64,000 nucleotides of DNA from an uncultured delta proteobacterium (GCA_963771465.1 CAVYTU010000014.1:960001-1024000); one strand, 5' to 3'; counted from the first letter of the stretch, positions 34,442 to 58,933 are shown. The notes: generated by a model not told the origin, from the letters alone. Translations and numbers: made by a program.

Positions 34442-34780
34442 ATGCCTTTATACGAATTTCGCTGTAAAAAGTGTGGATCAATAACCGAGGCGCTGATTCG
34501 GCACATCGATTCCAGTGATGAGACTGTAAATTGCGCGCATTGCGGCAGCGCGGCGATGAGCAAGGTAATTTCGCTGGTGCGCTTCAAGGTTGCGCGGCGG
34601 GCCAAGTATAGCGACGAATTTCTCGACAAGGCAACGCCCTTCCTTAAGACCCAAAGAGAAACCGCTAAGTATTTCGCCGAAGGAAAAGGCTCGGAGGATG
34701 CCAAGACGTTCAAGCTCGCGGAACAGATCGGCGAACGGATCGATCGGACGCTCGCGAGTGTGCCGGCGCGCAAAGATTAA
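34442..34780 (+). CDS. FmdB-family zinc-ribbon protein
   Basis: MPLYEFRCKKCG...CAHCGS. Confidence 0.85.
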   Translation: MPLYEFRCKKCGSITEALIRHIDSSDETVNCAHCGSAAMSKVISLVRFKVARRAKYSDEFLDKATPFLKTQRETAKYFAEGKGSEDAKTFKLAEQIGERIDRTLASVPARKD

Positions 34781-34846
34781 GCGCGCTGTAAACTAAATTC
34801 GGCTGCGGCCGTTAAACCCATACCGAAAGATTTTCAGGAGGTAAGC

Positions 34847-35983: not shown

Positions 35984-36001
35984 CAGTAAGAAGTCTCACC
36001 T

Positions 36002-36943: not shown

Positions 36944-36974
36944 TGCTTTAAGCCTCCGATCGGAGGAGTTGATA

Positions 36975-38294: not shown

Positions 38295-38313
38295 AACAAC
38301 CCCTTTCCTTCGG

Positions 38314-39841: not shown

Positions 39842-39895
39842 CGTTAATTCTCCTTTCCGTTCGCGACCGCAGCTTCGGAGCTGACGCGATGGTTT

Positions 39896-41224: not shown

Positions 41225-41297
41225 GCGAATGTTGATCCGGCGGCAGCGCAATTTGCCGCAAAATATTTTGATTCTATTCAGACTTCCGAAATAATCG

Positions 41298-42362: not shown

Positions 42363-42402
42363 TCTCCGTAAAGCTCGCTCGCTTTTTTACTGCGCCGTTC
42401 TG

Positions 42403-43452: not shown

Positions 43453-43492
43453 TCCTTGTTTCAGAAGATTTGCAAATTATTATTACGCGGCG

Positions 43493-44491
43493 TCATTTAC
43501 TATAAATCTCGTTCATGATTTTTTGATATTTGTCGGCACCCGTGCGCGCTTGGGCCGACAAGAAGAGCAGTTTCTTACGATCGATGCCGTCCTTTATGGA
43601 AATGTCGTCTCGCATCACCGACTTGCCGGATTTGGCCATGACCGTTTGCCCTTCCTTGGACAAAACATAATCGACCAGGAGCCGAGCAGCGTTAGGATGT
43701 GGCGCCATTCCTAAAATCCCAATGGTTTGAATGTCCGCGTAAAGCGGATCTTCGAGACGAGCCCATTCAACTGAAAGTCCTTTCTCAGTGAAACTCTTGA
43801 TGCCGTCATGGTTCAGCGGCAAAGCGATCTCCACTTCTCCGCTGCCGAGCCACTGTTGAACCATCAATGTCGTTCCACGCCCTGGACGGGGATTGAGTCC
43901 GGCAAATTTGCGCAAAAAATCCATTCCCTTCTCAGCTCCGAAGAAATCCAGCATCGCATAGATCCATCCGTAGTTGTTCAAATTGATAGCAGCTTTGCCT
44001 TTCCACCGATCGCGCAGCAGGTCGTTGTAACGTTTGGGGACATCGGCCCCGGTGACCATGCGGCTATTATAGGCAATCGTCAGAATCGTAAAGTAAACAC
44101 CGCTGTAAAACCCGCGATCCTCGGGCGGACGTTCCGGCGAGCTATATTTTTGAAAAATGGTAGGCGTTTCCATGAGCATGAGGTCGAGAGAATCGGCGCC
44201 GGTGAGAACGAGATCGGCATTGTCCCGCTTGCCCACTCGCCGTTCCGTCAAGATCTTGGTAACCAGTGTCGAGCTTCCTTGCCGGTTTACTTCCACTCTG
44301 ATGCCGGGATATTTAGCGGAAAAAGCATCGACCAACGGTTGTGAATCTTCTAAATTGAGTGAGGTGTAAAGAACCGCTGAGCCTTCTTTTTTCGCTTCCT
44401 CGTAGCCGGCGCTTGCAGGTCCTGTGTTGCCGAGGAAGCAAACCAGCGCTCCCGCCATAATTATGATGCTTACTTGCGCCGAAGTTTTCAT
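43493..44491 (-). CDS. Extracellular solute-binding protein (Fe3+/thiamine-like)
   Basis: AKKEG, YTSLN and APHPNAARLLVDYVLSKEGQ motifs. Confidence 0.9.
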   Translation of the reverse strand: MKTSAQVSIIIMAGALVCFLGNTGPASAGYEEAKKEGSAVLYTSLNLEDSQPLVDAFSAKYPGIRVEVNRQGSSTLVTKILTERRVGKRDNADLVLTGADSLDLMLMETPTIFQKYSSPERPPEDRGFYSGVYFTILTIAYNSRMVTGADVPKRYNDLLRDRWKGKAAINLNNYGWIYAMLDFFGAEKGMDFLRKFAGLNPRPGRGTTLMVQQWLGSGEVEIALPLNHDGIKSFTEKGLSVEWARLEDPLYADIQTIGILGMAPHPNAARLLVDYVLSKEGQTVMAKSGKSVMRDDISIKDGIDRKKLLFLSAQARTGADKYQKIMNEIYSK

Positions 44492-44512
44492 GGTCGCGCC
44501 TCCTTGCTCAGC

Positions 44513-45508
44513 CTATTTGGTAAATAGATCGACCATCATCTTGTCGTATTCTTCGACCTTGGCGCGCGCTTCCGGGCCAACGATTCGAAGAGTCTTGCGA
44601 TCGATTTGCAGTTTTGTCGCTACATCATTTCGCACTGTAAATTTATCCAGACCAGCCAGTATCGTTTGGCCTTCCTTCGAGACGACGAAATCGACTAACA
44701 ACCGCGCTGCATTGGGATGTTGGGCATTTCCCAAGATGGCAATGCCGTGCACATCCGCATACACCGGGTCTTGGACCGCTGACAACGCTACCGGCGCTCC
44801 CTTGTTGATAAATGCGATTACCCCATCGTGATTGAGGGCGATGCCGACTTCCGCGTCGCCGGCGATCACGCTCTGCATGAGCTGGGTGGTGCCGCGGTAG
44901 GCGCGTGGTCCTGTCGCGGCCAATTTCTTGAGAAAGCTTATGCCGTTCTCGTTGCCGAAAAATTCCATCATGGAATAGATCCAGGTCGGATTGCCGAGGT
45001 TGACGGCAAGCTTGCCGCGCCAGCGTTCGTGGAGCAGGTCCTGATAGCGGCGCGGCGCGACGTCGGCGCCGACGAGGTTTTTGTTAAAGGCGATGCTGTG
45101 CACGCTCATATACGTGGCGGTCCAAAATTCGCCTTTCTCGGGTTTTGATTCCGGCGAGCTGTATTTCTGGAAATAGCCGCGGCCTTGCAGCAGATCGAGA
45201 TACTCGGCGCCCACCATGACGACGTCGGCGATGTCTTTGCCGGAGCGACGCTCGGTCATGACCTTTTGCAGTACGCTATTGGCGCTCTGACGATTAACCG
45301 TTACCTCGACGCCGGGATATTTCTTCGTGAACGCGGCGATAAGTTTTTCGCTATCCTCGACGTTGAGCGAGGTGTACCAGAGCGCCTGTTTTTCGCCCTT
45401 GGCTGCGTCATACCAGTTAGCGACAGCGCCATTTACATTGCCAGAGAAAAACACAATGACGAAATGACACAAAATGAAAAGAGCCGAACGATTCGAGTTC
45501 AGAGCCAT
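44513..45508 (-). CDS. Extracellular solute-binding protein, paralogue of 43493-44491
   Basis: WYTSLN and HPNAARLLVDFVVSKEGQ; start MALNS after GGAGG. Confidence 0.88.
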   Translation of the reverse strand: MALNSNRSALFILCHFVIVFFSGNVNGAVANWYDAAKGEKQALWYTSLNVEDSEKLIAAFTKKYPGVEVTVNRQSANSVLQKVMTERRSGKDIADVVMVGAEYLDLLQGRGYFQKYSSPESKPEKGEFWTATYMSVHSIAFNKNLVGADVAPRRYQDLLHERWRGKLAVNLGNPTWIYSMMEFFGNENGISFLKKLAATGPRAYRGTTQLMQSVIAGDAEVGIALNHDGVIAFINKGAPVALSAVQDPVYADVHGIAILGNAQHPNAARLLVDFVVSKEGQTILAGLDKFTVRNDVATKLQIDRKTLRIVGPEARAKVEEYDKMMVDLFTK

Positions 45509-45561
45509 TCTGTCCTCCGTGTTTCTCGATTCTATTATTCGTCGAGAGTCAAATCTCATGA

Positions 45562-46902
45562 TTACACAGGCCCGCCGGCTTGCAGCAACTGGGTCAACTG
45601 GCGGACGGTGGGCAGTTCTTCCAGGTGACTGACGCGGTCGACGATCTGGTCGGCCCGCGGTTGCGAGAATGCGCTGCTTACAGACTGCATGAATTTTTCG
45701 CGAACCGGCGGCCATTCGGTGAGATTGGCAATCGGTTGGAACGGTTCGGAGAATCTTTTGCCGTTTTTCAAAATCACTGTCAGTATTTCTTCATTGCTGT
45801 GACTGGTGCGTTGAATCAAGTTTTGTATGCGCGGATCTGCCAATCGTTCGTTGACAAAATCGTCCGGCTTGACCGTGCCGTGGACCAGAGTCATCGCCAG
45901 GCAGAAAGGCATGCTGAAGCGGCCTTCGTAGCCGCGGCTTGGCCGCGCGCGCACCAGCGGATAAGGGCGTAAATCGCATTCGATGGCGTCGACGTCGTCC
46001 GCGGTGATTTTTTCCCGTTGGCGCAAACGCAGCATGGCTTCCAGCCCGCTATGGGTTGCCGTGCAGGAGGCAAAGGGTTTGATCCGCAAACTGTGAGCGA
46101 GATCCCACTCGACGCCGAGGTTCTTACCGAGGGATTCGAGAATTTCATCACTCAAAGGCCCGACCGCTTCTAATAGCCCATAGCGGCCTTCGAGCACGGT
46201 GTCGTCGCTGGAAAATCCTGCCTGCGCGAGTAACGCCGTTGTCACGCCGGTAGCGGCGGCGTGGCCACAGCGAAACGGCTTGGCCATGGTGCCGCCGTCG
46301 CGGGTGAGCGCGCCGCAGGCGCCGGCCGACAGACCGATCGCCGCCAGTGTTTGCGTTGGATTTAACCGATAGATTCGGCTCGCCGAGCACGCCGCGGCAA
46401 TCGGGCCGAGTATTCCATTTGAATGCCAGCCGCGCGCGCCCGGGCCGATGCCGCTGGAGCGGGACGAGAAGATGCGATCCAAACTCGCGCGTACTTCACG
46501 GCCGATGATGAATGCTTCCAATGCTTGTCGCCCCGTGGACTCGGTGCTTTCCGCCGTCGCGATGGACGCAGCAAGGGTGTAAGTCGTCGAGTGATTTCTG
46601 TCGTCGTAATCGAGGCCATGCGCCAAGGTGCCGTTGAGAAACGCCGCGTCACGAGAGCTGGCTCTAGTTTCCATACCCCACACCGTGCAGTTGCCGGCGC
46701 CGACATTCGCCTTGGCAAATTTGTTCAAGCAATCGCCGATCTCTTGCTGGGTCGCCAAAACCGACACACCTAAACAGTCGAGTATCGCTAGCTTGGCATT
46801 GCTGATTACCGCCGTCGGCGCCTGCGTTAGCTGAAAATTTTGCGTGAACTCGGCGAGCTTTCGCGATAAACCGTCGATCGCTTTGTGCAAGGAATCGCTC
46901 AT
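45562..46902 (-). CDS. MmgE/PrpD family protein (paralogue of 39896-41224)
   Basis: AKLAILDCLGV, HGLDYDD and GPGARGWH motifs. Confidence 0.9.
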   Translation of the reverse strand: MSDSLHKAIDGLSRKLAEFTQNFQLTQAPTAVISNAKLAILDCLGVSVLATQQEIGDCLNKFAKANVGAGNCTVWGMETRASSRDAAFLNGTLAHGLDYDDRNHSTTYTLAASIATAESTESTGRQALEAFIIGREVRASLDRIFSSRSSGIGPGARGWHSNGILGPIAAACSASRIYRLNPTQTLAAIGLSAGACGALTRDGGTMAKPFRCGHAAATGVTTALLAQAGFSSDDTVLEGRYGLLEAVGPLSDEILESLGKNLGVEWDLAHSLRIKPFASCTATHSGLEAMLRLRQREKITADDVDAIECDLRPYPLVRARPSRGYEGRFSMPFCLAMTLVHGTVKPDDFVNERLADPRIQNLIQRTSHSNEEILTVILKNGKRFSEPFQPIANLTEWPPVREKFMQSVSSAFSQPRADQIVDRVSHLEELPTVRQLTQLLQAGGPV

Positions 46903-46923
46903 GAATAACCTCGAAAAAATGTC

Positions 46924-47955
46924 TTAGCGCTTGCCGTAGAGCGCGTCGATATAACCGCTCTCGTCGAGCTTGCGAACGAAACGGTTGTCGATAAGATCGT
47001 CGACTTTGACGCGGCTCACATTGGCATTCAAGCTGCCCATCATGCGCTGGATATTGCGCAGCCCTTCGGCGCTACCGTAGGGTTTTCTCTCGAAGCCGAC
47101 GAGCAGATCCTGATAGCCCTCTTCCAGCGTGATTGGATCGTTGAGTTTCATTTGCTGCATCATGGTTTTCAGCACGATGTTTCGGTTGGTGGGAAGCGAA
47201 ATGAACGCTTGCGCTTCGAGCAAACCCTTGAGCATTGCCTCGACGACATCCGGCCGATCGCGCAGGTAGTTGCCGTTGACCACGAGACTGGTGTTGACGA
47301 ACGGAATCTTGGCGTGCTGGAGCTCGACGAGAACCGCCAGCCCCTTCTGTTTCATCCGGCGGCTGAGGAAGGGATCGAGCAGTGTGGCATCGATGTTACC
47401 GGCCTCGATGGCTTGCGCAAGAATCGTCTGATTGCCAATGGCGTTGATGCGAACATGATCGCGGTTGGCATCCAAGCCGAGATGTTCGAGGGCGAGTATC
47501 GCCGCCATCCAAGTCGTGCCGCCGATGTTGGTGACGCCGAAGCGTTTGCCGCGTAGATCTTTCGCTTCCTTAATCTCGGGACGGACGACGACATCGTAGG
47601 AAAGTCGATTGCTCGGGCTGGCGACGATTTTCAAATCCTGTCCGCCCGACACCGCCGAGAGCACCGGCGCGCCGCCGCTGCTGCCAAACTGCACATCGCC
47701 GGTGGCCATGGCGGTCATCTGCAAGTTACTGCTGCGCAAATAAATCGTCTCGACGTCGAGGCCATGTCTGGCGAAAAATCCTTGGCCCTTGGCAATCCAC
47801 AGCACCGCGGAACGGGTGTTTACCGCGGACTGACTCATGCGCAGTTTGGTCAACGACGGTTTGGCGGTTGTCGACGACGCGGCGGCGAAGCCATCGAAAG
47901 CGCCGAGCAACAGCAATAAAAGCGCGGATAGTTTTATAAATACACGTATGCTCAC
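46924..47955 (-). CDS. ABC substrate-binding protein, SsuA/NMT1/THI5 type
   Basis: LWIAK.QGFF..HGLD and DLRGKRFGVT motifs. Confidence 0.88.
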   Translation of the reverse strand: MSIRVFIKLSALLLLLLGAFDGFAAASSTTAKPSLTKLRMSQSAVNTRSAVLWIAKGQGFFARHGLDVETIYLRSSNLQMTAMATGDVQFGSSGGAPVLSAVSGGQDLKIVASPSNRLSYDVVVRPEIKEAKDLRGKRFGVTNIGGTTWMAAILALEHLGLDANRDHVRINAIGNQTILAQAIEAGNIDATLLDPFLSRRMKQKGLAVLVELQHAKIPFVNTSLVVNGNYLRDRPDVVEAMLKGLLEAQAFISLPTNRNIVLKTMMQQMKLNDPITLEEGYQDLLVGFERKPYGSAEGLRNIQRMMGSLNANVSRVKVDDLIDNRFVRKLDESGYIDALYGKR

Positions 47956-47997
47956 GAGAGCGCCTGTTCGAGACTGCCGAAGAGCCCGCCAATCGTC

Positions 47998-49140
47998 CTA
48001 CGCTACATTATAGAACTTGGCGCAGTTGTCCCAGATCAGCTTCTGTTTAATCTGGTTTGGAACTCCTTTGAACTGGCTCTCTATCACTTCCGGTGAGTGC
48101 GGCCAGGTGGAACCGCCATGAGGATAGTCGCTTGCCCACATATAATTGTCGGCCATGTCGAAGACTTCGGTACCAAGCACGCCAATGCGATCGTCTTGGA
48201 ATGTGATGTACAATTGCCGCCGAATGAGTTCACTGGGAAGCAAAGAGACGGTTTTACCATCCGGCACTTCCGAGCGAGCTCTTTGCAGGGTGCCGTCCAT
48301 TTTGCTGATGAACGGATGGAGCCAGGAGAGATCGTACTCAGCGAGCACAACGCGGAGCTTGGGAAATCGTTCCAACACGCCACCGAACACCAGGTCGGTG
48401 GTGAGTTTCAGCGGCTCGAGAATCGCGCGATTAACGGCGTTGCGGCCCTGTTGCACCGGAGTAATAACTTTAAGCCGCGCCGCCATGCGATCGCGGCCTT
48501 GGACGATGTTAACATGATAGTGAATCGGAAAATTCATGTCCTGAGCCAGCGTCCACAGTGGATCGAACTCTGGATCACAATAACTCATGCCTTCAGGCAA
48601 CGCCGACGGCAACACTACGCCCTTATGGCCGCGCTTGGCGCAGCGTTTCATTTCCTCTAAGGACCATTCGACATCGAGCGCAGAGAGCAAACCCAAAGCG
48701 AGTAAGCGCTTGGGTGCTACGGCGCAATAATCCAGCAGCCAATCGTTATAGGCGATGAGTCCAGCTTTTTGCAGCGGCGTTTCTTCGCCTTTGAGGCTAT
48801 AAAAATTGCGCGCCATGCTCGGATAGAGCACTTCCATTTTGACGCCGTCTAGATCCATATCTCCCAGGCGCGCATGGGCGTCCCACGGTCCGCGCCAATC
48901 TTCCCAAGTGAAATTCTCAATGACCTTGCGAATCGCGCCGCCGCTTTTGTCTTTGCCTGCAGTAAACGTCATTCCCACCGGGTCGGGCTCGTGGCCGTCG
49001 AAAACCATGTAGAGGCCTTTCTTTCCGGGCGGATCTTGGACAAAACGCGGCCCATGCTCGCGCAGATTCTTCGGGATTCGTTCCCAAGCTTCAGGTGGTT
49101 CGTTGACGTGGGAATCCGATGAGAAAAATGTTGGTTCCAC
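47998..49140 (-). CDS. Amidohydrolase family protein (Amidohydro_2)
   Basis: SSDSHVNEP, DMDLDGV..EVLYPS and WASDYPH motifs. Confidence 0.9.
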   Translation of the reverse strand: MEPTFFSSDSHVNEPPEAWERIPKNLREHGPRFVQDPPGKKGLYMVFDGHEPDPVGMTFTAGKDKSGGAIRKVIENFTWEDWRGPWDAHARLGDMDLDGVKMEVLYPSMARNFYSLKGEETPLQKAGLIAYNDWLLDYCAVAPKRLLALGLLSALDVEWSLEEMKRCAKRGHKGVVLPSALPEGMSYCDPEFDPLWTLAQDMNFPIHYHVNIVQGRDRMAARLKVITPVQQGRNAVNRAILEPLKLTTDLVFGGVLERFPKLRVVLAEYDLSWLHPFISKMDGTLQRARSEVPDGKTVSLLPSELIRRQLYITFQDDRIGVLGTEVFDMADNYMWASDYPHGGSTWPHSPEVIESQFKGVPNQIKQKLIWDNCAKFYNVA

Positions 49141-49252
49141 TTGTTTACCTCCAGCGAGTTACTGACTTATACAATTCGTTAATTAAAATTTTCTGGTCAT
49201 TTTAATACTTGATGAATTTCTCAACGCACAATCGGTTATTCCACAAAAGTCG

Positions 49253-50305
49253 CTACCGGTACAAACGGTCGATAAATTGGCTCTCTTCTAGTTTGCGATA
49301 AATGCGCTCGTCGACGAGCTCTTCGGCTTTCACTTTGGTGACGCCCGGGTTGTAGCGCATTACCCGCTGAATATTTTTCAGTCCAGCCACGTCCGGGTAT
49401 GGCTTCTTGGCGATCAATTTGTCGAGATCCTGAAAGGTTTCCTTAGCGGTAATCGGGTCGGTGATTTTTAAGCGCTCGGCCAAAAACCTGAGCACAATAT
49501 CTCGGTTAGCAGGTTTATACAGAAACGCGGTGGATTCGATCATGACCTTTAAAACATTCTCGACGACATCCGGCTGCTGCTGCAGGTAACTGCGGGACAC
49601 CACTAGACCGGAGCTGGCGAACGGTAGTTTGGCGCTCGACAGCTCGGCCAGGACGCGAAATCCTTTTCGCTTGAGCTCTCTGGAGAGCGCGGGTTCGACT
49701 AAGATCGCGTCGACTCTGCCGGAATTAAGTGATTGGACAAGCACCGTTTGATCGCCGATGCCTTGCAGTCGAATGCGATCCCGCTCGGGACTGAGACCGA
49801 AATGCTCCAAACCTAAGATCGCGCCGATCCAAGTGGTGCCGCCGATGTTGGTAACGCCAAGGTCTCGGCCGCGCAACTCCTCAATGCTTTTTATTTCTGG
49901 TTTGGCGACGATGTCCCAATAAACACCCTGGCCGAAGGTGGCGACGATTTTCAGATCATGTCCCGCGGCCGCAGCGCTCAGTGTTGGCGCGCCGCCGGTA
50001 TGGCTTAGCTGCACTTCATTGGTGGTGAGCGCCATCATCTGAATGGTGCTGTTACGCACATAGACTGGCTCGAGATCGAGATTGTACTTCTTGAACAAAC
50101 CTTGGCTCGTGGCGATCCACAGGGGCGCGGCGGTGACGCCGACGTTAGATTGGCTCAAGCGAATCCTTGCCGCGGCGCCAAGATTCTGTGTCATGATTAT
50201 CGGTAGCAATGAAGCGATCAGGACCGCGATCCTGGCGAGTTTGTATCGGTGTCTCGACGAGAGGAGGCGAAGGCAAGTTGTATTCGGCCACAGTTGCGTT
50301 TTCAT
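49253..50305 (-). CDS. ABC substrate-binding protein, SsuA/NMT1/THI5 type
   Basis: PLWIA..QGLFKKYNLD; GVTNIGGTTW shared with 46924-47955. Confidence 0.88.
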   Translation of the reverse strand: MKTQLWPNTTCLRLLSSRHRYKLARIAVLIASLLPIIMTQNLGAAARIRLSQSNVGVTAAPLWIATSQGLFKKYNLDLEPVYVRNSTIQMMALTTNEVQLSHTGGAPTLSAAAAGHDLKIVATFGQGVYWDIVAKPEIKSIEELRGRDLGVTNIGGTTWIGAILGLEHFGLSPERDRIRLQGIGDQTVLVQSLNSGRVDAILVEPALSRELKRKGFRVLAELSSAKLPFASSGLVVSRSYLQQQPDVVENVLKVMIESTAFLYKPANRDIVLRFLAERLKITDPITAKETFQDLDKLIAKKPYPDVAGLKNIQRVMRYNPGVTKVKAEELVDERIYRKLEESQFIDRLYR

Positions 50306-50314
50306 AATCTCCCG

Positions 50315-51397
50315 TCAGCGCTTGCTGATGAACAGCCGGCGCTTGTATCCTTCCCATTCATTAAATTTCTTCTCCATTTCGTCCGGCGGGTAGCGACTTT
50401 CGATATAAACCTTTTTGAACTTTTGCTCTTGCGAACCGATGTCGCTGCGCGCCGAACTTAAACCGCCCTTTAAAACCGTCTGTTGTCCTTCTTTGGAGTG
50501 GAGAAAGTCGAGGAAGAGCAGCGCGGCGTGAGGATTAGGCGCTCTAACAACCATTCCCGAAGTGCCGGTGGTCGCGATCACGGGATCGATGGGGCGCCAC
50601 TCCACAGGCGCGCCTTTTTGCTTGGCGACGGCGATGTTCGAATTGAAAATCGTCGGTGACAAAGGCACCTCGCCAGAAGCCACGAGTTGCGCCAACGCCG
50701 CGCCGGAGATGTTCTGCACGTTTATTTCCTGCCCGGCAATTTTTTCGAGAAACTCACGGCCAAAAGTTTCCACCAGGGCGCCGATCCACTGAGTGCCGGT
50801 GGTTGTGCCCGCGATGGACATCTTGCCTTTCCATTTAGGATCGAGCAGATCCTTCATCGTCTTGGGCGCGTCGGCCGGCGGAATGATTTTGCTGTTGAAA
50901 CCCAAACTGATGTAAAGCTCGCGACTAGTCCAATGAAGATAACCATTCTTGCCTTTGAACTTGACGTGGTCGTCGTAGGGACCGAGCTCGGGAGAAAACA
51001 CTTCTTGAAATCCATTGGCAGCGACCAAGAGCGCCATATAGTCAGGACTGGTTTCGACCACGTCGGCGATGAAGCGGCCGGCCGCCATCTCATCGGTTAA
51101 ACGTTTGAGCAGCTCTTTGGAGTCGCTGCGCCAGACGTTGGTTTTGATGAACGGATATTTCTTACCAAACTCCTCGGACACGTGACCCGCCATCCAGGTG
51201 TTGGAGGTGTAAAAAGTTACCTGCCCTTCCTTCTTCGCGCCGTCGAGCAAAATTTGACCGCGATCTTTGCCTTGATAAAGCGCCAGCTCTGCGCCGGCGA
51301 GGGTTTTAGTTTGCGCCGCGTTCAGTGCTGCCAACGGCCAATGCGCGGCCGTTATGATGATCGCGAGTAGAATACCGTTGAGAGTTCTAAGCGTCAT
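50315..51397 (-). CDS. Extracellular solute-binding protein (Fe3+/thiamine-like)
   Basis: GAKKEG, DLLDPKWKGKM and ASGEVPLSPTIF; close to 32011-33090. Confidence 0.9.
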   Translation of the reverse strand: MTLRTLNGILLAIIITAAHWPLAALNAAQTKTLAGAELALYQGKDRGQILLDGAKKEGQVTFYTSNTWMAGHVSEEFGKKYPFIKTNVWRSDSKELLKRLTDEMAAGRFIADVVETSPDYMALLVAANGFQEVFSPELGPYDDHVKFKGKNGYLHWTSRELYISLGFNSKIIPPADAPKTMKDLLDPKWKGKMSIAGTTTGTQWIGALVETFGREFLEKIAGQEINVQNISGAALAQLVASGEVPLSPTIFNSNIAVAKQKGAPVEWRPIDPVIATTGTSGMVVRAPNPHAALLFLDFLHSKEGQQTVLKGGLSSARSDIGSQEQKFKKVYIESRYPPDEMEKKFNEWEGYKRRLFISKR

Positions 51398-51426
51398 TGA
51401 TAATTCCTCCTGGAGGCGACACGAGT

Positions 51427-52608
51427 TTAATCGAAGTAACCTGCTTTGTAGGCCCACAACCATAGATAGGCGATTTTTTCGTTGTGGAGCTCAGCATAGC
51501 CGACATGGCCATAACGTGGGATCAAGACGACATGAGCGCCGCGCGTGGCCGCGGCGTACTTGGCGCCCATAAACATCTCGCGCTTATTTTCCAGCGGCGC
51601 GCCGCCGTTGACCCAATGGCCTTTGTCGTTCTCGCCGGCGACGAGCAGCACGCGAATGGTTTTCAGCCAACTCGCGTCAGGTTCTTGTAGATGGTCGAAA
51701 TATTCTTCCCGGGGCAGGCCGGTACGCTTGGGATACTCTTCCAATATTCCCAGTGCCGCGTTGTGCTGATTGTCGCACAGACTGGTTTTCATCTGTGAAC
51801 GGAGCGGTGTGGCCAGCCGGATGTAGTCGTCGGCGCCGCCCCAGGGCGTCAGGTCTTCGGGGTCGACGTAACCCGAATTCTTGAACGAATCCGGAGAACG
51901 GCGCGAGACATGGTCAACCGGTTTCTCGCCATATTTTTCTGCGCTGGTCTGGTTACGCCACTCCAAGCGCCAACCGTCGGGGCCGCCGCTGCCGAAGCCG
52001 ACGATGCCGATCACTTTGGTTTTCTGAGAGAAGCGTGTCAGGTGCGCCGCCATCGGCCCGCCCGTCGAGTGACCGAAACCGATAATTTCGCGTCCGGCGA
52101 GATGTTGATCGGTGAGCAGGCCGGCGCCCTGAAGAATGACGTTGAAGGTACATTTGAGATTGCGATCGAGAATTTCCTCCCTCGGCAATTCTCGATCGAG
52201 CAGATAAATCGGCATGCGTTCGGCGACGGGAATATCCCAAATCCCGCCCGGCGGATAATGGCCGGGATAGGTGAGCGATAAAACTTTGAAGCCTTGGGCG
52301 GCGAGCACGCGCGCAAGCCCAGGCCGGCCATCGGGCGTGAAGTCCATGATCTTTTCGCTGGCGGCGCCGCCGTGAAAAAAAACGAAGCCGCGTATGCCGT
52401 CGAGCTCCCGCTCCGGCGCGTAAAGAGTGCCGTGCATGTCCCAGTCATAGCCGTTGCGCCGGTAGCGGGTAGTAACATCTTGGGTGCTGAAATTTCCAAC
52501 TGGATACGGCGGCGCAATGGCGAGCCAATCCTCCCAGCTGAGTTTCAAGAGTAACTGTTTTGAGTTAAGGCCGTTTAGATAGGTTTCGATGACTTCAGTG
52601 GCTGCCAT
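51427..52608 (-). CDS. Alpha/beta-fold hydrolase-like protein
   Basis: FFHGG, nucleophile elbow GHSTGG, AGEND and GHV. Confidence 0.7.
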   Translation of the reverse strand: MAATEVIETYLNGLNSKQLLLKLSWEDWLAIAPPYPVGNFSTQDVTTRYRRNGYDWDMHGTLYAPERELDGIRGFVFFHGGAASEKIMDFTPDGRPGLARVLAAQGFKVLSLTYPGHYPPGGIWDIPVAERMPIYLLDRELPREEILDRNLKCTFNVILQGAGLLTDQHLAGREIIGFGHSTGGPMAAHLTRFSQKTKVIGIVGFGSGGPDGWRLEWRNQTSAEKYGEKPVDHVSRRSPDSFKNSGYVDPEDLTPWGGADDYIRLATPLRSQMKTSLCDNQHNAALGILEEYPKRTGLPREEYFDHLQEPDASWLKTIRVLLVAGENDKGHWVNGGAPLENKREMFMGAKYAAATRGAHVVLIPRYGHVGYAELHNEKIAYLWLWAYKAGYFD

Positions 52609-53591: not shown

Positions 53592-53625
53592 AAAATAAAA
53601 AAGGGCTGTCCCGTGACATCCCTTT
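53592..53625 (-). terminator. Rho-independent terminator
   Basis: aaagggatgtc-acgg-gacagcccttt hairpin followed by TTTTATTTT, about 25 nt after the NuoF-like stop. Confidence 0.75.
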
Positions 53626-53649
53626 GGAATCGATCGGCCTTTTGCCGAT

Positions 53650-54909
53650 TCAATTGACCGGACATTTGCCAGTCGTGAGATGGGCTTCGAAATCGGCTGG
53701 GAAGAGTTTGAGCGCGCTTTCGATTGGCGGACCGGGCATGGCGATCAAATTGCAAAAACCTTTACCTTTATTAAACGCGAGAATCTTGCCGAACTGTTCG
53801 AGGATCGGCTGTCCGCCCTGGCCTGATTGGACCTTTTTCATCATCATCGACAGCGCATTGGTTTCCATGCGGCAAGCCGGACACTGGCCGCAGGATTCCG
53901 CGGTGAAAAAGTCGGCGATGCGGAGAACTTCTTCGACAATGCACGTTCCTTGGCTGATGAGTTTGACGACGCCGCAGCCTAAAGCGGAACCTGCGTCGCG
54001 CATGGAGTTATGATCGAGTGGCGTGTCGATTTTATCCGGCGGCAAAAACGCCGACGACGGCGCGGCTGGCATAATCGCTTTGAGCGGCTTGCCGCTCTTA
54101 AGTCCGCCGCCGCATTCTTCGATTAAATACCGCAGCGGCGTGCCGAACGGCAGTTCGTAAACGCCCGGACGATTGACGTCGTCGTCGAGGGAAAAAATCA
54201 TCGTGCCGGGACTCTCAATCGTGCCGAATTGCCGGTACCACTCGGCGCCTTTGAGCAAGATCGGCGCGACGTTGGCAAGGGTTTCGACATTATTTACCGA
54301 GGTCGGTTTGCCAAACAGGCCGACCGTCACGGGGAACGGCGGTTTTTGCCGTGGCCACGGCTTGCGACCCTCAATCACTTCCAGCACCGCGGTGTCTTCA
54401 CCGGCGACATAATTATGCGGCGCAGAAATGATTTCTATATCGAGATTAAAATCGCTGCCGAGAACTTTTTCTCCCCAGTAAGCTGCGGCTTTTGCTTCAG
54501 CGAGCGCATCGGTAATGCTTTTGATGGCGACGTCGTATCTTGCGTTAATGTAAAGGTAAGCTTTATTTGCGCCGATGGCGTAGGCCGAAAGAATCGTGCC
54601 TTCAACTACTAAGTGCGGTAAGTTCTCTAGCAGCACGCGGTCTTTCTTGCTGCCGGGTTCGTCCTCGCCGCCATTCAAGACAAGATAGCGCGGCGTTTCC
54701 GCCGCTTCCCGGGTAAATTGCCATTTTTTTCCGGTTGGGAATCCCGCGCCGCCGCGGCCGCGCAGGCCGGCATCCGAGACGATTTTTACAATTTCTTCGG
54801 GCGCGCCTTTAATCGCTTTGGCGAGCGCATCGTAACCGCCGCGGGCGCGGTATTCCTTCAATCCCTCGTGCCCTTCAGGAACCGCGTGGGGGAAAAGGAT
54901 CCCTTCCAT
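53650..54909 (-). CDS. Stand-alone NuoF/HoxF-like FMN/[4Fe-4S] NAD(P)H oxidoreductase subunit
   Basis: GLRGRGGAGFPTG.KW, EDEPG..KDR, YVAGEDTA, NNVETL and ESCGQCPACR...FC; no other nuo genes nearby. Confidence 0.9.
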   Translation of the reverse strand: MEGILFPHAVPEGHEGLKEYRARGGYDALAKAIKGAPEEIVKIVSDAGLRGRGGAGFPTGKKWQFTREAAETPRYLVLNGGEDEPGSKKDRVLLENLPHLVVEGTILSAYAIGANKAYLYINARYDVAIKSITDALAEAKAAAYWGEKVLGSDFNLDIEIISAPHNYVAGEDTAVLEVIEGRKPWPRQKPPFPVTVGLFGKPTSVNNVETLANVAPILLKGAEWYRQFGTIESPGTMIFSLDDDVNRPGVYELPFGTPLRYLIEECGGGLKSGKPLKAIMPAAPSSAFLPPDKIDTPLDHNSMRDAGSALGCGVVKLISQGTCIVEEVLRIADFFTAESCGQCPACRMETNALSMMMKKVQSGQGGQPILEQFGKILAFNKGKGFCNLIAMPGPPIESALKLFPADFEAHLTTGKCPVN

Positions 54910-54912
54910 GAA

Positions 54913-55236
54913 TTAGAAAACCCCCGTGTCGAGCAGTTGGTAGATCAGCTCCTTGAGCGATGAATCGATGGTGTCCAAACGTTTGACATGGGGTCCGCCG
55001 GCGAGGTGTTCGACGATCTCGTCGAGATCTTCCGGCTTCACGTGAGCGTACCAGTTCTTTTCCGGGTAGATCACGATGTTGGGGCCTTCCTGGCAGGCGC
55101 CGAAGCACATGTAGGATTTCACTTCGACATCGGTCAGCCCTTTGGCGGCAAGTTTTTCTTGCAGCGCCGCCATCAACGGCTCCGACCCACGCGCTTTACA
55201 ATCGATGTTCTGACATACGAGACAAGCTTGGCTCAC
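54913..55236 (-). CDS. Thioredoxin-like [2Fe-2S] ferredoxin (NuoE C-terminal-like)
   Basis: VCQNIDC...CFGACQEGPNIVIYPE..WY; 3 nt from the NuoF-like start. Confidence 0.88.
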   Translation of the reverse strand: MSQACLVCQNIDCKARGSEPLMAALQEKLAAKGLTDVEVKSYMCFGACQEGPNIVIYPEKNWYAHVKPEDLDEIVEHLAGGPHVKRLDTIDSSLKELIYQLLDTGVF

Positions 55237-55297
55237 GGTTTCTCCTTAAACGCTACATATTAGTCTCCATACTATATGCAACATATCTGCGCCGAGC

Positions 55298-56404
55298 TCA
55301 ATTCACCTGCATTTGAGACACCCAGTCTTTGCCTTTGATGATGTCGGCTAAAATCTGTTCGTCTTCGGGCGTCGGCAACGCTTCGAGCAAGTGTTGCTTG
55401 TAAGCCTCCGGCGACAGTGGCTCGCCGGTAACGCTGTGGTTCTTGCCGATATGCTCGCCGATGGAGCGGTTGAACTTCAAGTCGGGCGCTTTGAGTTTGG
55501 CTTGCCCTTCTGGAATGAGTTGGTTGAGCTGATCGATTAGTTTCTGCGATTCGGCCATGTAATGTTCACGAGCGAGATCATTGAGTCTTTCTTTCTGAGC
55601 TGGAACCTTGGCGTCATGTTCGTCATAGCGTCCCTTCAAACCCCAGGTGTAGGCCCAGTGGGCCGAGGAGGAATGATCGGTGCCAAACAGATCATAGGCG
55701 GTCGAAAGCCATTTATTAAAATACTTCTGCACGATTGGAATAGGAATCTTGCCGGCTCGCATGATCCGCGTCAGTCCGGTGTGACCGGTGAACATATGGA
55801 AAAATTCTTCCTTGAGCATCGCCGTCACGCTTTCAGCAAGCGGCGCAAACGCCGAGTGCGAGAGCATCGTTAGCTGGTATTTGCCGTCGCGGTCGACGAA
55901 CTCTGTATAGGTGAAAAAGTCGAGCCAGTTATTCACAGGTGCATTGAATGAGCCGAGCAAGCGGTCGCCGCGGAAAGCGCGGCGCTCTAACATTTTGCGC
56001 GCCTCGAGTTTTCCCGAATCGCCAAAATAATTCACCAGCAGATAACACATCTGCCAGCCGTGGCGCATTTCTTCGCTATTGACCCGGATCAACGCCTGGC
56101 GGTCATATTCCGTCGGCGCGGTGTCGAGCAGGTTTTTCTGCTGTTCGACTGACGCGAATTCCGTATCGCCTTGATAGACGATCAGGTTCATCAACGCATC
56201 GCGGATGGACTGATTGGGGATTTGGCTGACCCGTTGCCACTTTTGTTGCCCGGTGAAATCGCCGAACTCGATTTCCGGCGCATGAATCTCACCGAGTTTG
56301 GTCTCGAATTGGTAGTCGCCCAACAGAGTGGGATCGTAGCCGATATCTTTTTGCCACTGGCGGAAATAATCAACCCAGTCATCAAAAGTAGAAATCTTGA
56401 TCAT
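55298..56404 (-). CDS. BoxB/PaaA-family di-iron aryl-CoA epoxidase-like protein (368 aa)
   Basis: QGDTEFASVEQQ, EEMRH, DRDGKYQL and EEFFH align with BoxB motifs QGDTEPASVEQQ, EEGRH, DRDGKFQL and EEAHH. Confidence 0.85.
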   Translation of the reverse strand: MIKISTFDDWVDYFRQWQKDIGYDPTLLGDYQFETKLGEIHAPEIEFGDFTGQQKWQRVSQIPNQSIRDALMNLIVYQGDTEFASVEQQKNLLDTAPTEYDRQALIRVNSEEMRHGWQMCYLLVNYFGDSGKLEARKMLERRAFRGDRLLGSFNAPVNNWLDFFTYTEFVDRDGKYQLTMLSHSAFAPLAESVTAMLKEEFFHMFTGHTGLTRIMRAGKIPIPIVQKYFNKWLSTAYDLFGTDHSSSAHWAYTWGLKGRYDEHDAKVPAQKERLNDLAREHYMAESQKLIDQLNQLIPEGQAKLKAPDLKFNRSIGEHIGKNHSVTGEPLSPEAYKQHLLEALPTPEDEQILADIIKGKDWVSQMQVN

Positions 56405-56421
56405 AAGAAACCCTTTCGCTA

Positions 56422-56443
56422 AATTCGAACGATCGTTCGAATT
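56422..56443. promoter_or_regulatory. Perfect 22-bp palindromic operator (TetR/PaaR-type)
   Basis: AATTCGAACGATCGTTCGAATT lies between a TTGATT-N17-TATAAA promoter (minus strand) and the RBS of the BoxB-like gene. Confidence 0.75.
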
Positions 56444-56533
56444 ATTTATAACCTTTTGGATTTCCGAAATCAAGGCCCTGGCAAAGGGGCAGGAGCATGA
56501 CGGGGCGATAGGTTTCCTCGTCGGTTTTGCGGA

Positions 56534-58933
56534 TCAGCGATACATCTCCAAGATCTCGACCATGCCGAGTTGGCGAATCTGGTCGAACAGGTAGCGCTTA
56601 ATTTCGCCCACAGTGTCCATCTCGAGAACAATCCGCGCGGCGGTTTTAGCGGCCTGGTAACTGGTCGAGCGCAACGCCTTTTTGATCACCGGGATATAAA
56701 GCGAGCCCATGCTGAACTCTTCCAGTCCCATGCCCAAAAGCACCAGCGCGCAAAGGGGATCGGCGGCCATTTCACCGCACATGCCAACGCGTTTTCCTTC
56801 TCTCCTACCGGCTTCGATGGTGGAGTTCAACGCCGATAAAACCGCCGGATGAAGGGGTTCGTATAGACTGGCCACTTTGCGATTGCTGCGGTCGACCGCC
56901 AGTAAATATTGGATCAGGTCATTGGTCCCGATGCTGAGAAAGTCAACTTCGCGCAAAAAACGATCGGCCAATTGAACCGCCGAGGGAACTTCTACCATGA
57001 TCCCCAATTCCATTTGCCGGTCGAAAGGCGTGCCATCGCGAGTCAGCTCGTATTTAGCTTCACCGAGCAGCTCTTTTACCTTTTGAATTTCCTCGAGGCT
57101 GGAAATCATCGGCACGAGCATTCTGACTCGGCCTAAATCGCCGACCCGGAGAATCGCCCGCAACTGGGTTTTGAAAATCTCTTCGACCTCAAGGGAAATT
57201 CGAATGGAACGCCAGCCCAAGAAGGGGTTTGGCTCGGTGGCCACGCTGCGCATGTAGGTCGGATACTTGTCCGCACCGATATCCAGAGTGCGGATCGTCA
57301 CGGGTTTTTCGCCCATACCCTCAACAACGCGTTTGTACAGTGCGTACTGTTCCTCTTCGCTGGGAAAGTCGCGATGGGATAGGAACGGAATCTCGGTTCG
57401 GTAAAGGCCAATTCCCTGCGCTCCATGCAGATTGGCGAAGGCAACATCGCCTAACAGGCCGATATTGGCGTAGAGCGAAACGCGGTGGCCATCGGTGGTT
57501 TCCGCCGGCAAGTCTTTGAGCGCGCCCAACTCGCGGTTCAGGTCGGCATAATCGTGTTCTAACCGATCGTACTCGCGAATGACTTCGGGATTCGGATTCA
57601 CATGCACGCCGCCCGAATTGCCGTCGACGATCAACAGATCGCCTTGATGGACATTTTCCATCAAGCCTTCGACGGCGACCACGCTGGGAATTTCAAACGA
57701 TTTTGCCAGGATCGACGCATGCGAGGTCACGCCGCCGGTGGATAATACGATGCCTTTGAATTTGTCGCCTTCGAGCATGCTCAAATCCGCCGGCGATAGA
57801 TCCTGAGCGACCAAAACGGCGTCGTCGGGAATATCGTATTGCTGGTCGACGCCACCGGAAAGGTTTTCCAACAATCGCTGCGCGGCGTCTTTGACGTCGG
57901 TGCTGCGTTCGCGCAGATAGGGATCGTCGATCTTTGCAATCGAAGCCAAATAGCGTTCGAAGACGGCGCGCACCGCATACTCGGCGATAAAGCCTTCGCG
58001 CAAGATCTGGTGCTCGATCTGCTGAATGATCTTGGGGTCTTCAAGGATCAAACGGTAGACGTCGAAGATCGCTCCTTCCTCAGCGGAAATCATATGGCTC
58101 ATACGGTTTTTGACGACGGCGATTTGATCGATGCCGCGCTCTACCGCGCCGCGAAAGCGCTCTATTTCATGGCGCGGCTTGCGCGATTTTTTCTTTCGTA
58201 TCGCACTCAAGTCCATGCGCGGTTCGAGCACGAACGCCTTGCCGCGGCCAAAACCCGGCGATGCCGCCAGTCCGTCGAGCCGTCCATGCCAGTGTTGTTT
58301 GGTTTTTGCCGTGCGCCCGCGCCGACTGCCTTCGTAGGAACGCAGCTTGCGCATCGCTTGATTCATGCGTTTCTGAAACTCTTTTTGCTCCTCCTCTTTG
58401 TTTTTGAGCGTTTCGGCGAGGCGCGCTTGCACGATGATGCTCGCTGCCTGCGTCGAGATTGTCGTCAGCAGACGAATCTCATCGCGGGAAAATTCCCGCC
58501 GCCGGGAAGTTTGCACGACCAAAACTCCGAGGGGTTGTTTCTTTTCGATCAGTGGCACGCCGAGGAAAGAATGGAAATGCTCTTCGTGGGTTTCCGGAAA
58601 ATATTTGTATCGTGGATGTTTGAGCGCGTCGAGGACCATGACGGGTTTCATTCGTTCGAGCACCATACCCGTGAGCCCTTCGCCGGTCGCCATCGTGACT
58701 TTGCCGACAGACTCCGGATCGAGGCCCTTCGTGGCGCACAAAGTCAGGCGGTTTTTCTTTTGATCGAAGATGTAAAGCGAGCAAACTTCGGTCTCCATCC
58801 GTTCGGACACCGTGGCGACGATATTGTCGAGGGTCTCCTGCAAATCATGCGAATGGCTGATCAGCGTGCTGATGTCGGCCAGGATGCCGAGATGGGGATG
58901 AGTCGTGCGCGCGATTTTTCTTGTCTTAGCCAT
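56534..58933 (-). CDS. ptsP: GAF-domain phosphoenolpyruvate-protein phosphotransferase (EI-Ntr)
   Basis: N-terminal GAF (VCSLY, HPRYKYFPET.EE), TSHASI phospho-His, GLYRTE, RTLDIGADK, SIGTNDLIQY and CGEMA. Confidence 0.93.
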   Translation of the reverse strand: MAKTRKIARTTHPHLGILADISTLISHSHDLQETLDNIVATVSERMETEVCSLYIFDQKKNRLTLCATKGLDPESVGKVTMATGEGLTGMVLERMKPVMVLDALKHPRYKYFPETHEEHFHSFLGVPLIEKKQPLGVLVVQTSRRREFSRDEIRLLTTISTQAASIIVQARLAETLKNKEEEQKEFQKRMNQAMRKLRSYEGSRRGRTAKTKQHWHGRLDGLAASPGFGRGKAFVLEPRMDLSAIRKKKSRKPRHEIERFRGAVERGIDQIAVVKNRMSHMISAEEGAIFDVYRLILEDPKIIQQIEHQILREGFIAEYAVRAVFERYLASIAKIDDPYLRERSTDVKDAAQRLLENLSGGVDQQYDIPDDAVLVAQDLSPADLSMLEGDKFKGIVLSTGGVTSHASILAKSFEIPSVVAVEGLMENVHQGDLLIVDGNSGGVHVNPNPEVIREYDRLEHDYADLNRELGALKDLPAETTDGHRVSLYANIGLLGDVAFANLHGAQGIGLYRTEIPFLSHRDFPSEEEQYALYKRVVEGMGEKPVTIRTLDIGADKYPTYMRSVATEPNPFLGWRSIRISLEVEEIFKTQLRAILRVGDLGRVRMLVPMISSLEEIQKVKELLGEAKYELTRDGTPFDRQMELGIMVEVPSAVQLADRFLREVDFLSIGTNDLIQYLLAVDRSNRKVASLYEPLHPAVLSALNSTIEAGRREGKRVGMCGEMAADPLCALVLLGMGLEEFSMGSLYIPVIKKALRSTSYQAAKTAARIVLEMDTVGEIKRYLFDQIRQLGMVEILEMYR

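Follow-up and report, generated by a model that had tools for sequence, protein, structure and literature searches.

A short BoxB-like di-iron protein with ferredoxin and NuoF/HydB-like partners: a candidate three-component aryl-CoA oxygenase operon in an uncultured delta proteobacterium

Introduction

Benzoyl-CoA is a hub of the breakdown of aromatic compounds, and to our knowledge BoxAB, acting with BoxC, is the only known system for its aerobic, CoA-dependent attack; the reductase BoxA contains FAD and [4Fe-4S] clusters. The phenylacetyl-CoA 1,2-epoxidase PaaABCE is a second di-iron aryl-CoA epoxidase, also of family PF05138, that uses NAD(P)H via an iron-sulfur flavoprotein, the FNR-type reductase PaaE with its plant-type [2Fe-2S] cluster. 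In the toluene, phenol and methane monooxygenases, electrons pass from NADH to a flavo-iron-sulfur reductase, a small ferredoxin and finally a di-iron hydroxylase. A flavoprotein module of the hydrogenase HydB type, BamGHI, also occurs in benzoyl-CoA metabolism, where it serves the anaerobic class II reductase. BoxA is characterised as NADPH-dependent in PMC5489048, and the architecture of BamH/HydB-type subunits (N-terminal thioredoxin-like [2Fe-2S] domain, FMN/NAD(H) core, [4Fe-4S] helical domain) is given in bioRxiv 10.64898/2026.04.10.717634. Here we analyse a stretch of 64,000 nucleotides (hereafter the window) from an uncultured delta proteobacterium (GCA_963771465.1, CAVYTU010000014.1:960001-1024000), in which the gene for a short BoxB-like di-iron oxygenase is followed by genes for a thioredoxin-like [2Fe-2S] ferredoxin and a flavoprotein resembling NuoF and the core of HydB.

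We propose that these three genes are one transcription unit for an NADH- and O2-dependent three-component aryl-CoA oxygenase, most likely a benzoyl-CoA 2,3-epoxidase, a proposal that we hold with belief and doubt in equal parts. The narrower statement, that the three proteins act together as an NADH-dependent aryl-CoA oxygenase, appears somewhat more probable than not.

Results and Discussion

The short BoxB-like oxygenase

The oxygenase gene (55298..56404, minus strand) encodes 368 aa from an ATG at 56404. Its open reading frame (ORF) extends at most over 55298-56473 (391 aa from a TTG start), and the ATG gives the length of 368 aa that nearly all close relatives share. The protein belongs to the ferritin-like PaaA_PaaC family PF05138 (43.5 bits, cut-off 28.5), and its closest solved structure is BoxB 3per (E 1.2e-51, phmmer), followed by the 235-aa Sulfolobus protein 4mud and by PaaA at E ~1e-7 (3e-7 to PaaA). 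Across the core four-helix region, identity with 3per is roughly 45% by count, and both ExxH motifs (EEMRH and EEFFH) are present in the alignment to BoxB. PMC5489048 lists E120, E150, H153, D211, E240 and H243 as the Fe ligands of BoxB and Q116, T119, S123, F193, F203, F206 and T210 as lining its benzoyl pocket. When the oxygenase is aligned to 3per, all six ligands are identical, as are five of the seven pocket residues (Q116, T119, S123, F193 and F203).

An AlphaFold model built from 52 sequences (pLDDT 92.2) superimposes on ten BoxB chains of 3q1g, 3pm5 (the benzoyl-CoA complex), 3per and 3pf7 with a Foldseek E of ~1e-23 and TMq of 0.86-0.89. As modelled, the oxygenase retains the entire BoxB fold but is shortened at its termini and loops: compared with BoxB of about 470 aa, the N-terminus is shorter, the insertion after the fourth ligand helix is missing and the C-terminal part is reduced. 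The locus thus shares with BoxAB of Aromatoleum (Azoarcus) evansii a single-subunit oxygenase, its fold, its Fe ligands and five of the seven residues of the benzoyl pocket, but has neither BoxA nor an adjacent BoxC. In their place stand the [2Fe-2S] ferredoxin of thioredoxin-like type and the NuoF-like protein with its FMN and [4Fe-4S] sites. It differs further from PaaABCE, since partners corresponding to PaaB, PaaC and PaaD are lacking and the similarity to PaaA is limited to the E of 3e-7 given above.

Of 6992 database candidates, 4954 proteins are relatives of the oxygenase at E <= 0.001. In a quick maximum-likelihood tree, 28 oxygenases of the three-gene type form one clade (SH-aLRT 99), nested within a short clade of 48 rows that includes Acidobacteriota (SH-aLRT 90), and canonical BoxB forms a separate clade (98); the long-branch rows P0166, P0154, P0135, P0244, P0195 and P0134 are insecurely placed. 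The phylogeny that had been suggested as a check on the sequence-only reading therefore yields a distinct short clade apart from canonical BoxB. In two long database proteins a BoxB-like domain is fused to an enoyl-CoA hydratase (ECH) or to an aldehyde dehydrogenase; these are single sequences and may be artefacts of gene calling. The family itself is not new, as automatic pipelines already label its members "BoxB".

The ferredoxin and the flavoprotein

The ferredoxin gene (54913..55236, minus strand) encodes 107 aa from a GTG start with an AGGAG site 7 nt upstream. The product matches PF01257 (40 bits, cut-off 24.8) but falls short of the NuoE model TIGR01958 (38.8 bits versus 142.4), of which only positions 73-147 of 148 are matched. 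Its top match in the PDB is the N-terminal [2Fe-2S] domain of the HydB-type chain 7t2r_B (residues 8-102) and its second the 110-aa [2Fe-2S] ferredoxin 1f37, NuoE-type subunits appearing only at ~1e-6. Cys8, Cys13, Cys44 and Cys48 are invariant across 32 ferredoxin sequences, in which the C-terminal tail SLKELIYQLLDTGVF is also conserved; the resulting pattern CX4C...CX3C is that of NuoE.

The flavoprotein (53650..54909, minus strand, 419 aa from an ATG) carries an FMN/NADH site and one [4Fe-4S] motif. Three domains score above their cut-offs, namely PF01512 (Complex1_51K, 146 bits), PF10531 (SLBB, 33.7 bits) and PF10589 (NADH_4Fe-4S, 58.4 bits), and the alignment shows both the glycine-rich loop and the motif CxxCxxC...C. 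The protein scores 417.3 bits with the NuoF model TIGR01959, below the cut-off of 558.65, and is not encoded in a nuo operon. Its best PDB chains are NfnB 9n5u_B, HydB 7p5h_B and 7q4v_B and the NiFe-HydB chain 7t2r_B, at ~1e-100, with NuoF chains from 3e-99; it aligns to residues 129-531 of the 602-aa NfnB, ending at the [4Fe-4S] helical domain.

The sequence-only reading had described this pair as a NuoE/F-type diaphorase. The NuoF-like domain set is present, but HydB/NfnB-type subunits outscore NuoE and, narrowly, NuoF chains. By sequence the pair is more HydB/NfnB- than NuoE/F-like, and looks like a HydB-type unit that has been split and trimmed and comes with no complete NuoE. The ferredoxin would correspond to the N-terminal [2Fe-2S] domain of the HydB, NfnB and BamH subunits, and the flavoprotein to their FMN/NAD(H) core and [4Fe-4S] helical domain. 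The differences are that the [2Fe-2S] domain is here a separate gene of 107 aa, so that two polypeptides take the place of one, and that the C-terminal 2x[4Fe-4S] domain is missing; nor is there beside the operon a further PF01257 protein with an N-terminal helical domain that might be the HydC/NuoE-like partner. In contrast to the HydABC family and complex I, no hydrogenase, formate dehydrogenase, quinone module or Bam partner is encoded nearby, and the neighbour is an O2-activating di-iron protein. The three-step electron chain that we propose is like that of the multicomponent di-iron monooxygenases, which differ in their FNR-type reductases, Rieske or plant-type ferredoxins, multi-subunit hydroxylases and effector protein, none of which is found here. 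A complex prediction for oxygenase and ferredoxin gave a median score of 0.18, compared with a mark of 0.32 and without controls, and speaks neither for nor against binding.

The operon copy is the third NuoF-like protein of its genome, the other two being 39-40% identical to it. One of these is the NuoF of an ordinary nuo operon (C14:764-778 kb), which also encodes NuoE, and the other is a NuoE-NuoF fusion adjoining a formate-dehydrogenase-like molybdoenzyme. As both are already placed in nuo and formate-dehydrogenase-type settings, the operon copy would be a dedicated third one. The genome also encodes a second thioredoxin-like [2Fe-2S] ferredoxin, 65% identical to that of the operon (C14:468536-468853; L091:7537-7854), directly after a glyoxalase-family gene and with no NuoF-like or BoxB-like gene near it.

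Layout of the operon

The ferredoxin and flavoprotein genes are separated by 3 nt, between the stop codon TAA (54913-54915) and the ATG at 54909. Upstream of the oxygenase gene, a -35-like hexamer TTGATT was recognised by direct reading (56468..56473, minus strand), and TTGA(T/C)TT occurs at the equivalent position upstream of related loci; the putative -10-like hexamer TATAAA (56445..56450, minus strand) follows after 17 nt. A perfect palindrome of 18 bp, TTCGAACGATCGTTCGAA (56424..56441), overlaps the predicted transcription start and is a putative operator, and a ribosome site GAAAGGG lies between it and the oxygenase ATG. Downstream of the flavoprotein gene there is an intrinsic-terminator-like hairpin followed by the U-run UUUUAUUUU (53592..53624, minus strand), with a 10-bp stem containing one mismatch and a loop ACGG; the hairpin proper (53601-53624) folds at -11.9 kcal/mol (z -2.41), and 3 of 200 shuffled sequences fold equally well. 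Neither promoter nor terminator was listed by a consensus scan, the former because the scan demands a final T in the -10 hexamer and the latter because it accepts only stems free of mismatches.

All elements of the three-gene layout first read from the sequence, i.e. the ORFs, both ExxH motifs, putative promoter and operator, 3-nt gap and terminator-like hairpin, were recovered. The window also proved to be devoid of nuo, hox, fdh, boxA, boxC and paaBCDE genes, as had been stated, among the 51 proteins (ORFs of at least 90 aa) scanned against Pfam. The description of the operon as self-contained holds for its transcription but not for the pathway, for which the likely downstream enzymes and the regulator sit elsewhere in the genome.

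Conservation of the three-gene order

A scan of species-representative genomes returned at least 599 matched stretches, 594 of which encode a relative of the oxygenase, and the best 80 of these at least 599 were taken as loci. Neighbouring genes were called with a crude GC3-weighted ORF caller, and counts of neighbours are lower bounds. The order BoxB-like gene, ferredoxin, NuoF-like gene is present in 28 of the 30 Binatia-type loci (L011-L040, 72-93% identity), the two exceptions being contig edges, within the first gene in L018 and after the ferredoxin in L037. The gap between ferredoxin and NuoF-like gene is 3-12 nt across related loci and reaches ~170 nt in L033 and L035. The outer neighbours vary: nearer loci have PtsP upstream, and more distant loci have TctC/TctA and a luciferase-like gene. 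Adjacency also holds in two genomes of the same taxonomic order as the window (G034 and G052), where a NuoF-like ortholog (64-67%) directly follows the BoxB-like gene. A survey of gene neighbourhoods for conserved ferredoxin and NuoF-like partners, one of the checks initially put forward, thus turned out in favour of a conserved unit. NuoF-like orthologs were found only in genomes holding a short BoxB, and were absent from three genomes with canonical BoxB and from three acidobacterial genomes.

Most records of the three-gene type are labelled Binatia or "Deltaproteobacteria", and a few carry other phylum labels despite neighbours that are ~80% identical. Such are L014, L015, L017, L020 and L024 (labelled Verrucomicrobiia, Limnocylindrales, Eisenbacteria and Udaeobacter), with the same gene order and ~70-87% protein identity; these are probably mis-binned or mislabelled contigs of metagenome-assembled genomes. 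The BoxB-like gene at L040:6001-7105 is apparently frameshifted, as it matches at 93% over its first 800 nt yet has an ORF of only 269 aa.

In a sample of the class, 41 of 101 genomes have a BoxB-like match at E <= 1e-40. Within the order of the window's organism, all 12 other genomes have some match and 10 of them an ortholog (71-91%), the remaining two (G086 and G102) having only a paralog of 59-60%. Eight genomes (G007, G016, G025, G034, G043, G070, G078 and G094; see L113 and L114) carry a second short-BoxB paralog (54-60%) besides the three-gene copy. In G034 and G078 this paralog lacks both the operator and any neighbouring gene for an ECH, TetR, ferredoxin or NuoF-like protein. The window's own genome has a single short-BoxB copy.

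Other families of the class have long BoxB-like open frames (469-857 aa, 41-51% identity). In the three genomes tested, canonical BoxB adjoins a BoxC that scores above its cut-off (G039:C1:3275073-3278045, G084:C1:2854059-2856679 and G093:C12:849274-851863, i.e. loci L110-L112), and a CoA ligase gene comes next in L110 and L112, but not in L111. No NuoF-like, ferredoxin or BoxA gene lies near these three clusters, and their genomes contain no NuoF-like ortholog. Conversely, no canonical-length BoxB is listed among the matches at E <= 1e-40 in the 13 genomes of the window's order, its own included. Among the genomes searched, short and canonical BoxB are therefore split by family, which fits functional replacement.

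Pathway context in the genome

The genome to which the window belongs (G000) comprises 6.9 Mb in 19 contigs and is 99.4% complete with 6.3% contamination. Two proteins exceed the cut-off of the benzoate-CoA ligase model TIGR02262 (800.1 and 593.7 bits versus 375.25), the better of them followed by a five-gene ABC transporter of the branched-chain type, and from these two matches the organism is predicted to make benzoyl-CoA. The absence of a BoxA or PaaE elsewhere in the genome that might serve the oxygenase had been left to be checked; it was confirmed at the level of equivalog models, the best scores being 30.1 bits versus 459.2 for BoxA and 48 versus 421 for PaaE. The search for BcrB gave no match. 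Other PaaA-like genes are three lone ORFs of ~240-260 aa with 24-26% identity, two of which were confirmed as PF05138, and none is part of a paa cluster.

Candidates for later steps are found on other contigs. The best BoxC-like match of the genome (71.9 bits) is an ortholog, 57-58% identical, of the acidobacterial hydratase ECH1 described below; it is located on C17 (C17:48038-48811), where it adjoins an aldehyde dehydrogenase and lies near an acyl-CoA ligase. In G030, ECH1 is found directly upstream of a BoxB-like paralog. An annotated AOR cluster on C16 appears to combine a NuoEF-fused formate-dehydrogenase-type enzyme with AOR, and contains no Hdr-like genes.

Relatives in Acidobacteriota

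The neighbours of the short BoxB gene in 50 acidobacterial loci (59-64% identity) include TetR regulators (15 loci), enoyl-CoA hydratases (19 loci, 34 copies), aldehyde dehydrogenases (7) and 3-hydroxyacyl-CoA dehydrogenases (9), all co-directional and with short gaps. Two arrangements recur. In the first (context A), genes for TetR, ECH1, in some cases an aldehyde dehydrogenase, a Mug-like glycosylase, ECH2, the BoxB-like protein, a rhodanese, ArsC/Spx, a 3-hydroxyacyl-CoA dehydrogenase and a macro-domain protein are co-directional, with gaps of 23-180 nt in L087 except for one overlapping ORF call. In the second (context B), MutY follows the BoxB-like gene and a UPF0158-like gene diverges from it; FabH, a PAS histidine kinase, DUF5777 and CBM9 complete the arrangement.

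In seven loci (L050 at 8307-11355, L053 at 10869-11912, L056, L059, L067, L069 and L074) a Fer2 and molybdopterin (MoCo) protein pair adjoins the BoxB-like gene. Three proteins were scanned: the large subunit of L050 exceeds the cut-off of the 4-hydroxybenzoyl-CoA reductase alpha equivalog (1006.3 versus 994.55 bits), and the gamma subunit (181 versus 258 bits) and the beta subunit of L053 (328 versus 405 bits) have these models as their best matches, below cut-off. As the product of 4-hydroxybenzoyl-CoA reductase is benzoyl-CoA, this gene content suggests a hybrid route in some Acidobacteriota, in which 4-hydroxybenzoate would be converted to benzoyl-CoA and then undergo aerobic ring attack.

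A shared operator

Of the 29 Binatia-type loci with at least 60 nt of upstream sequence, 28 carry the 16-nt core of the palindrome, TCGAACGATCGTTCGA, at a distance of 36-63 nt upstream of the start codon and with no more than 3 mismatches; in the exception (L039) a 4-mismatch copy lies further upstream. Within its own 6.9-Mb genome the palindrome is unique at up to 2 mismatches. In the form TCGAACGAACGTTCGA the core also occurs near the start of the TetR gene in acidobacterial context-A loci, within -150 to +120 of the ORF start in 14 of 15 and at +195 of an over-long ORF call in the fifteenth (L068); in L087 it directly follows a TTGACA-17-TAGAGT promoter. The core common to the Binatia operon and the acidobacterial TetR-led row would tie both to one type of regulator.

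In the window's genome, the protein nearest to the acidobacterial TetR (C13:117494-118216) has 38% identity to it and resembles it in the helix-turn-helix region; its gene adjoins PaaF-, PaaG-, PaaH- and PcaF/PaaJ-like genes (best matches, below equivalog cut-offs). A peroxiredoxin gene lies next to this TetR gene. The PaaH-like 3-hydroxyacyl-CoA dehydrogenase at C13:114142-115741 (L109:4142-5741) is called as two overlapping ORFs that correspond to the N- and C-terminal parts of a 503-position model, reflecting either a frameshift or an artefact of the caller.

A reading of the palindrome as an SOS box was considered and dropped: the palindrome fits the pattern CGAAC-N4-GTTCG of a Gram-positive or actinobacterial LexA box, but this pattern occurs at 11 sites in the genome for ~8 expected, and only one of them has the full core. 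This lack of enrichment favours a dedicated operator. The only operator-like site with 3 mismatches, TTAGTACGATCGTTAGAA (C16:184592; L107:4593-4610), is situated ~40 nt upstream of a gene for a MAPEG-family membrane protein, by cupin genes, and was too weak to be called a member of a regulon.

The neighbourhoods just described bear on the question of whether the trio needs an organic substrate. It could instead be an NADH-dependent scavenger of O2 or peroxide, the di-iron protein acting as a rubrerythrin-like oxidase or peroxidase, and the ferritin-like di-iron fold, the DNA-repair and redox genes beside the acidobacterial homologs (MutY in 8 loci, the Mug-like glycosylase in 12, rhodanese and ArsC/Spx) and the peroxiredoxin gene beside the C13 TetR would suit such a role. 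We consider it very improbable, since the conserved substrate-contacting residues of BoxB would then be needless, CoA-ester enzymes and a fatty-acid/acyl-CoA-type TetR stand out as its most strongly conserved partners, and the oxygenase has no rubrerythrin-family similarity in Pfam or NCBIfam.

Substrate and electron donor: evidence to the contrary

A number of observations weigh against an NADH-driven benzoyl-CoA epoxidase, and they concern firstly its substrate. The oxygenase scores 240.5 bits with the BoxB equivalog TIGR03225, for which the cut-off is 499.1 (two canonical representatives reach 672 and 908 bits, six members of the short family 100-234 bits), and two residues of the benzoyl pocket are substituted, F206 by Y and T210 by V. 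Together with some 100 missing residues, these features make another aryl-CoA possible. The window's genome also has no BoxC above cut-off (best 71.9 bits versus 712.3), so that ring cleavage would need a non-canonical crotonase. The same NADH chain might thus serve another CoA thioester (substituted benzoyl-, heteroaryl- or alicyclic acyl-CoA), or hydroxylation or desaturation instead of epoxidation. The separation of the short from the canonical clade in the quick tree (SH-aLRT 90 and 98), the presence of both forms within one class and of two short paralogs in some genomes point in the same direction, as paralogy often signifies different substrates. We nevertheless judge this alternative unlikely, if still a serious competitor, because five of the seven benzoyl-contacting residues and the hydrogen-bond pair Q116-E120 are kept, because a 4-hydroxybenzoyl-CoA reductase, which would deliver benzoyl-CoA, adjoins the gene in some Acidobacteriota, and because no canonical-length BoxB is listed at E <= 1e-40 in the 13 genomes of the order that were searched, which fits replacement rather than a new substrate.

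A second set of observations concerns the electron donor. The reductase pair is missing from the neighbourhood of 48 of the 50 acidobacterial genes; a ferredoxin lies nearby in two loci (L058 and L067) and a piece of a NuoF-like gene in one (L067). Whole-genome searches of five acidobacterial genomes found no ortholog in three, only generic NuoF matches of ~40%. In L058 the BoxB-like gene is followed by the ferredoxin, and a 56% NuoF-like ortholog stands elsewhere, alone between the phosphofructokinase (PFK) and DNA polymerase I (PolA) genes; in L067 the NuoF-like gene beside the BoxB-like gene (G005:C42:5759-6361) is broken, with stop codons, and is a pseudogene. Possession of the pair is thus no inherent trait of the enzyme family: it is linked to short BoxB in two phyla, yet most acidobacterial members do without it. 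Accepting the oxygenase as an epoxidase of the benzoyl-CoA type, the pair could then be a separate NADH:ferredoxin oxidoreductase for another process that is merely co-transcribed, as the many family members without it, the isolated L058 ortholog and the 65% identical ferredoxin beside a glyoxalase gene might indicate. This seems to us distinctly unlikely in view of a gene order that is kept behind one promoter and operator while the outer neighbours change (PtsP or TctC), of NuoF-like orthologs confined to short-BoxB genomes among those searched, and of the lack of an alternative reductase candidate (BoxA or PaaE) in the window's genome.

Four further points belong on the same side of the balance. 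BoxA was found at E <= 1e-20 in none of five class genomes tested, the three with canonical BoxB included, and as it is missing even alongside canonical BoxB and BoxC, its absence alone is weak evidence for a replacement reductase. The window's genome has four AOR-domain matches (two on C15), and parts of a class II benzoyl-CoA reductase are possible. No copy of the palindrome lies beside the C13 TetR gene, whose product shares just the 38% identity noted above. Metatranscriptome contigs from 4 runs in 4 studies align to portions of each of the three genes and differ from them by 0-3 letters, but the same contigs also cover intergenic DNA and neighbouring genes, and none has at least 31 letters on both sides of any gene junction of the operon; since carry-over of DNA is possible, no claim of expression or co-transcription is made.

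The earlier suggestion of an aryl-CoA epoxidation system gains support from the conserved active site, from the genes of CoA pathways and the 4-hydroxybenzoyl-CoA reductase beside acidobacterial relatives, and from the shared operator. It needs correction in that the short-BoxB family as a whole is not characterised by the reductase pair.

Proposed mechanism

The analysis establishes the gene order and its conservation, the domains, the ligand residues, the fold, the conserved operator and the lack of BoxA, BoxC and PaaE in the genome. From these, we infer the substrate, electron path, regulator and downstream steps of the proposed NADH-dependent aryl-CoA oxygenase as follows. NADH would donate a hydride to the FMN of the NuoF-like protein, from which single electrons would pass to its [4Fe-4S] cluster. 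They would next reach the small [2Fe-2S] ferredoxin, which might be a mobile carrier or be held in place like its counterpart in HydB-type subunits, and from there the di-iron centre of the short BoxB-like protein. Once reduced, this centre would activate O2 and epoxidise the ring of the substrate, a CoA thioester. Until a CoA ester appears, the operon is probably repressed at the palindrome by a regulator of the TetR family that responds to acyl-CoA and whose gene lies elsewhere in the genome. The product would probably be processed by the crotonase (ECH1 ortholog) and aldehyde dehydrogenase on C17 and by the PaaF/G/H/J-like beta-oxidation set on C13.

Surroundings of the operon

The remainder of the window encodes solute-binding proteins, amidohydrolases, MmgE/PrpD proteins, non-ribosomal peptide synthetase (NRPS) genes and PtsP. 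The PtsP gene (GAF-domain, Enzyme I-Ntr type; 56534-58933, minus strand) is directly upstream of the operon on its strand. By tblastn, PtsP is found upstream in 22 of the 30 related loci (16 full-length gene calls), TctC/TctA taking its place in more distant ones, and this adjacency is probably mere neighbourhood. Downstream of the operon, several related loci have a PuuE-like deacetylase and a 432-aa alpha/beta hydrolase. The NRPS genes (9576-16817 and 19414-20489, both minus strand) encode a 1788-aa C-A-T-C-A-T protein and a 615-aa A-T protein, and short condensation and AMP-binding fragments of 155 and 203 aa look like remnants. Positions 32011-51463 hold a dense run of genes for SBP_bac, NMT1 and SBP_bac_5 solute-binding proteins and of Amidohydro_2 and MmgE/PrpD genes.

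Implications

Searches of open-access literature gave nothing on the short clade, its HydB/NuoF-type partners, the shared TetR operator or the link to 4-hydroxybenzoyl-CoA reductase, and no report of a NuoF-type partner for BoxB or other di-iron oxygenases, of Binatia with benzoyl-CoA, or of a BoxA absence that bears on such a system. The short BoxB clade is very common in soil data, and pipelines assign the label "BoxB" despite the lack of Box pathway partners. In its widest form our proposal is tentative and invites more doubt than confidence: the trimmed, split HydB-type module may be a new class of reductase for di-iron oxygenases which, with a mini-BoxB, a single-domain crotonase and an aldehyde dehydrogenase, may constitute an unrecognised aerobic benzoyl-CoA pathway that takes the place of BoxABC in Binatia of soils and, served by other electron donors, in many Acidobacteriota. 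Both phyla would control it through a common TetR operator, and in some Acidobacteriota 4-hydroxybenzoyl-CoA reductase would feed it.

If true, this would add a new type of reductase to the enzymology of di-iron oxygenases, and would show that a flavoprotein module of the complex-I/hydrogenase type has been redeployed to supply an O2-activating enzyme. A compact, NADH-driven arene epoxidase of three proteins would also be of interest for biocatalysis. In some Acidobacteriota, "anaerobic" dehydroxylation would be joined to O2-dependent ring attack, and the inference from metagenomes of aromatic-carbon turnover by uncultured Binatia and Acidobacteriota would change.

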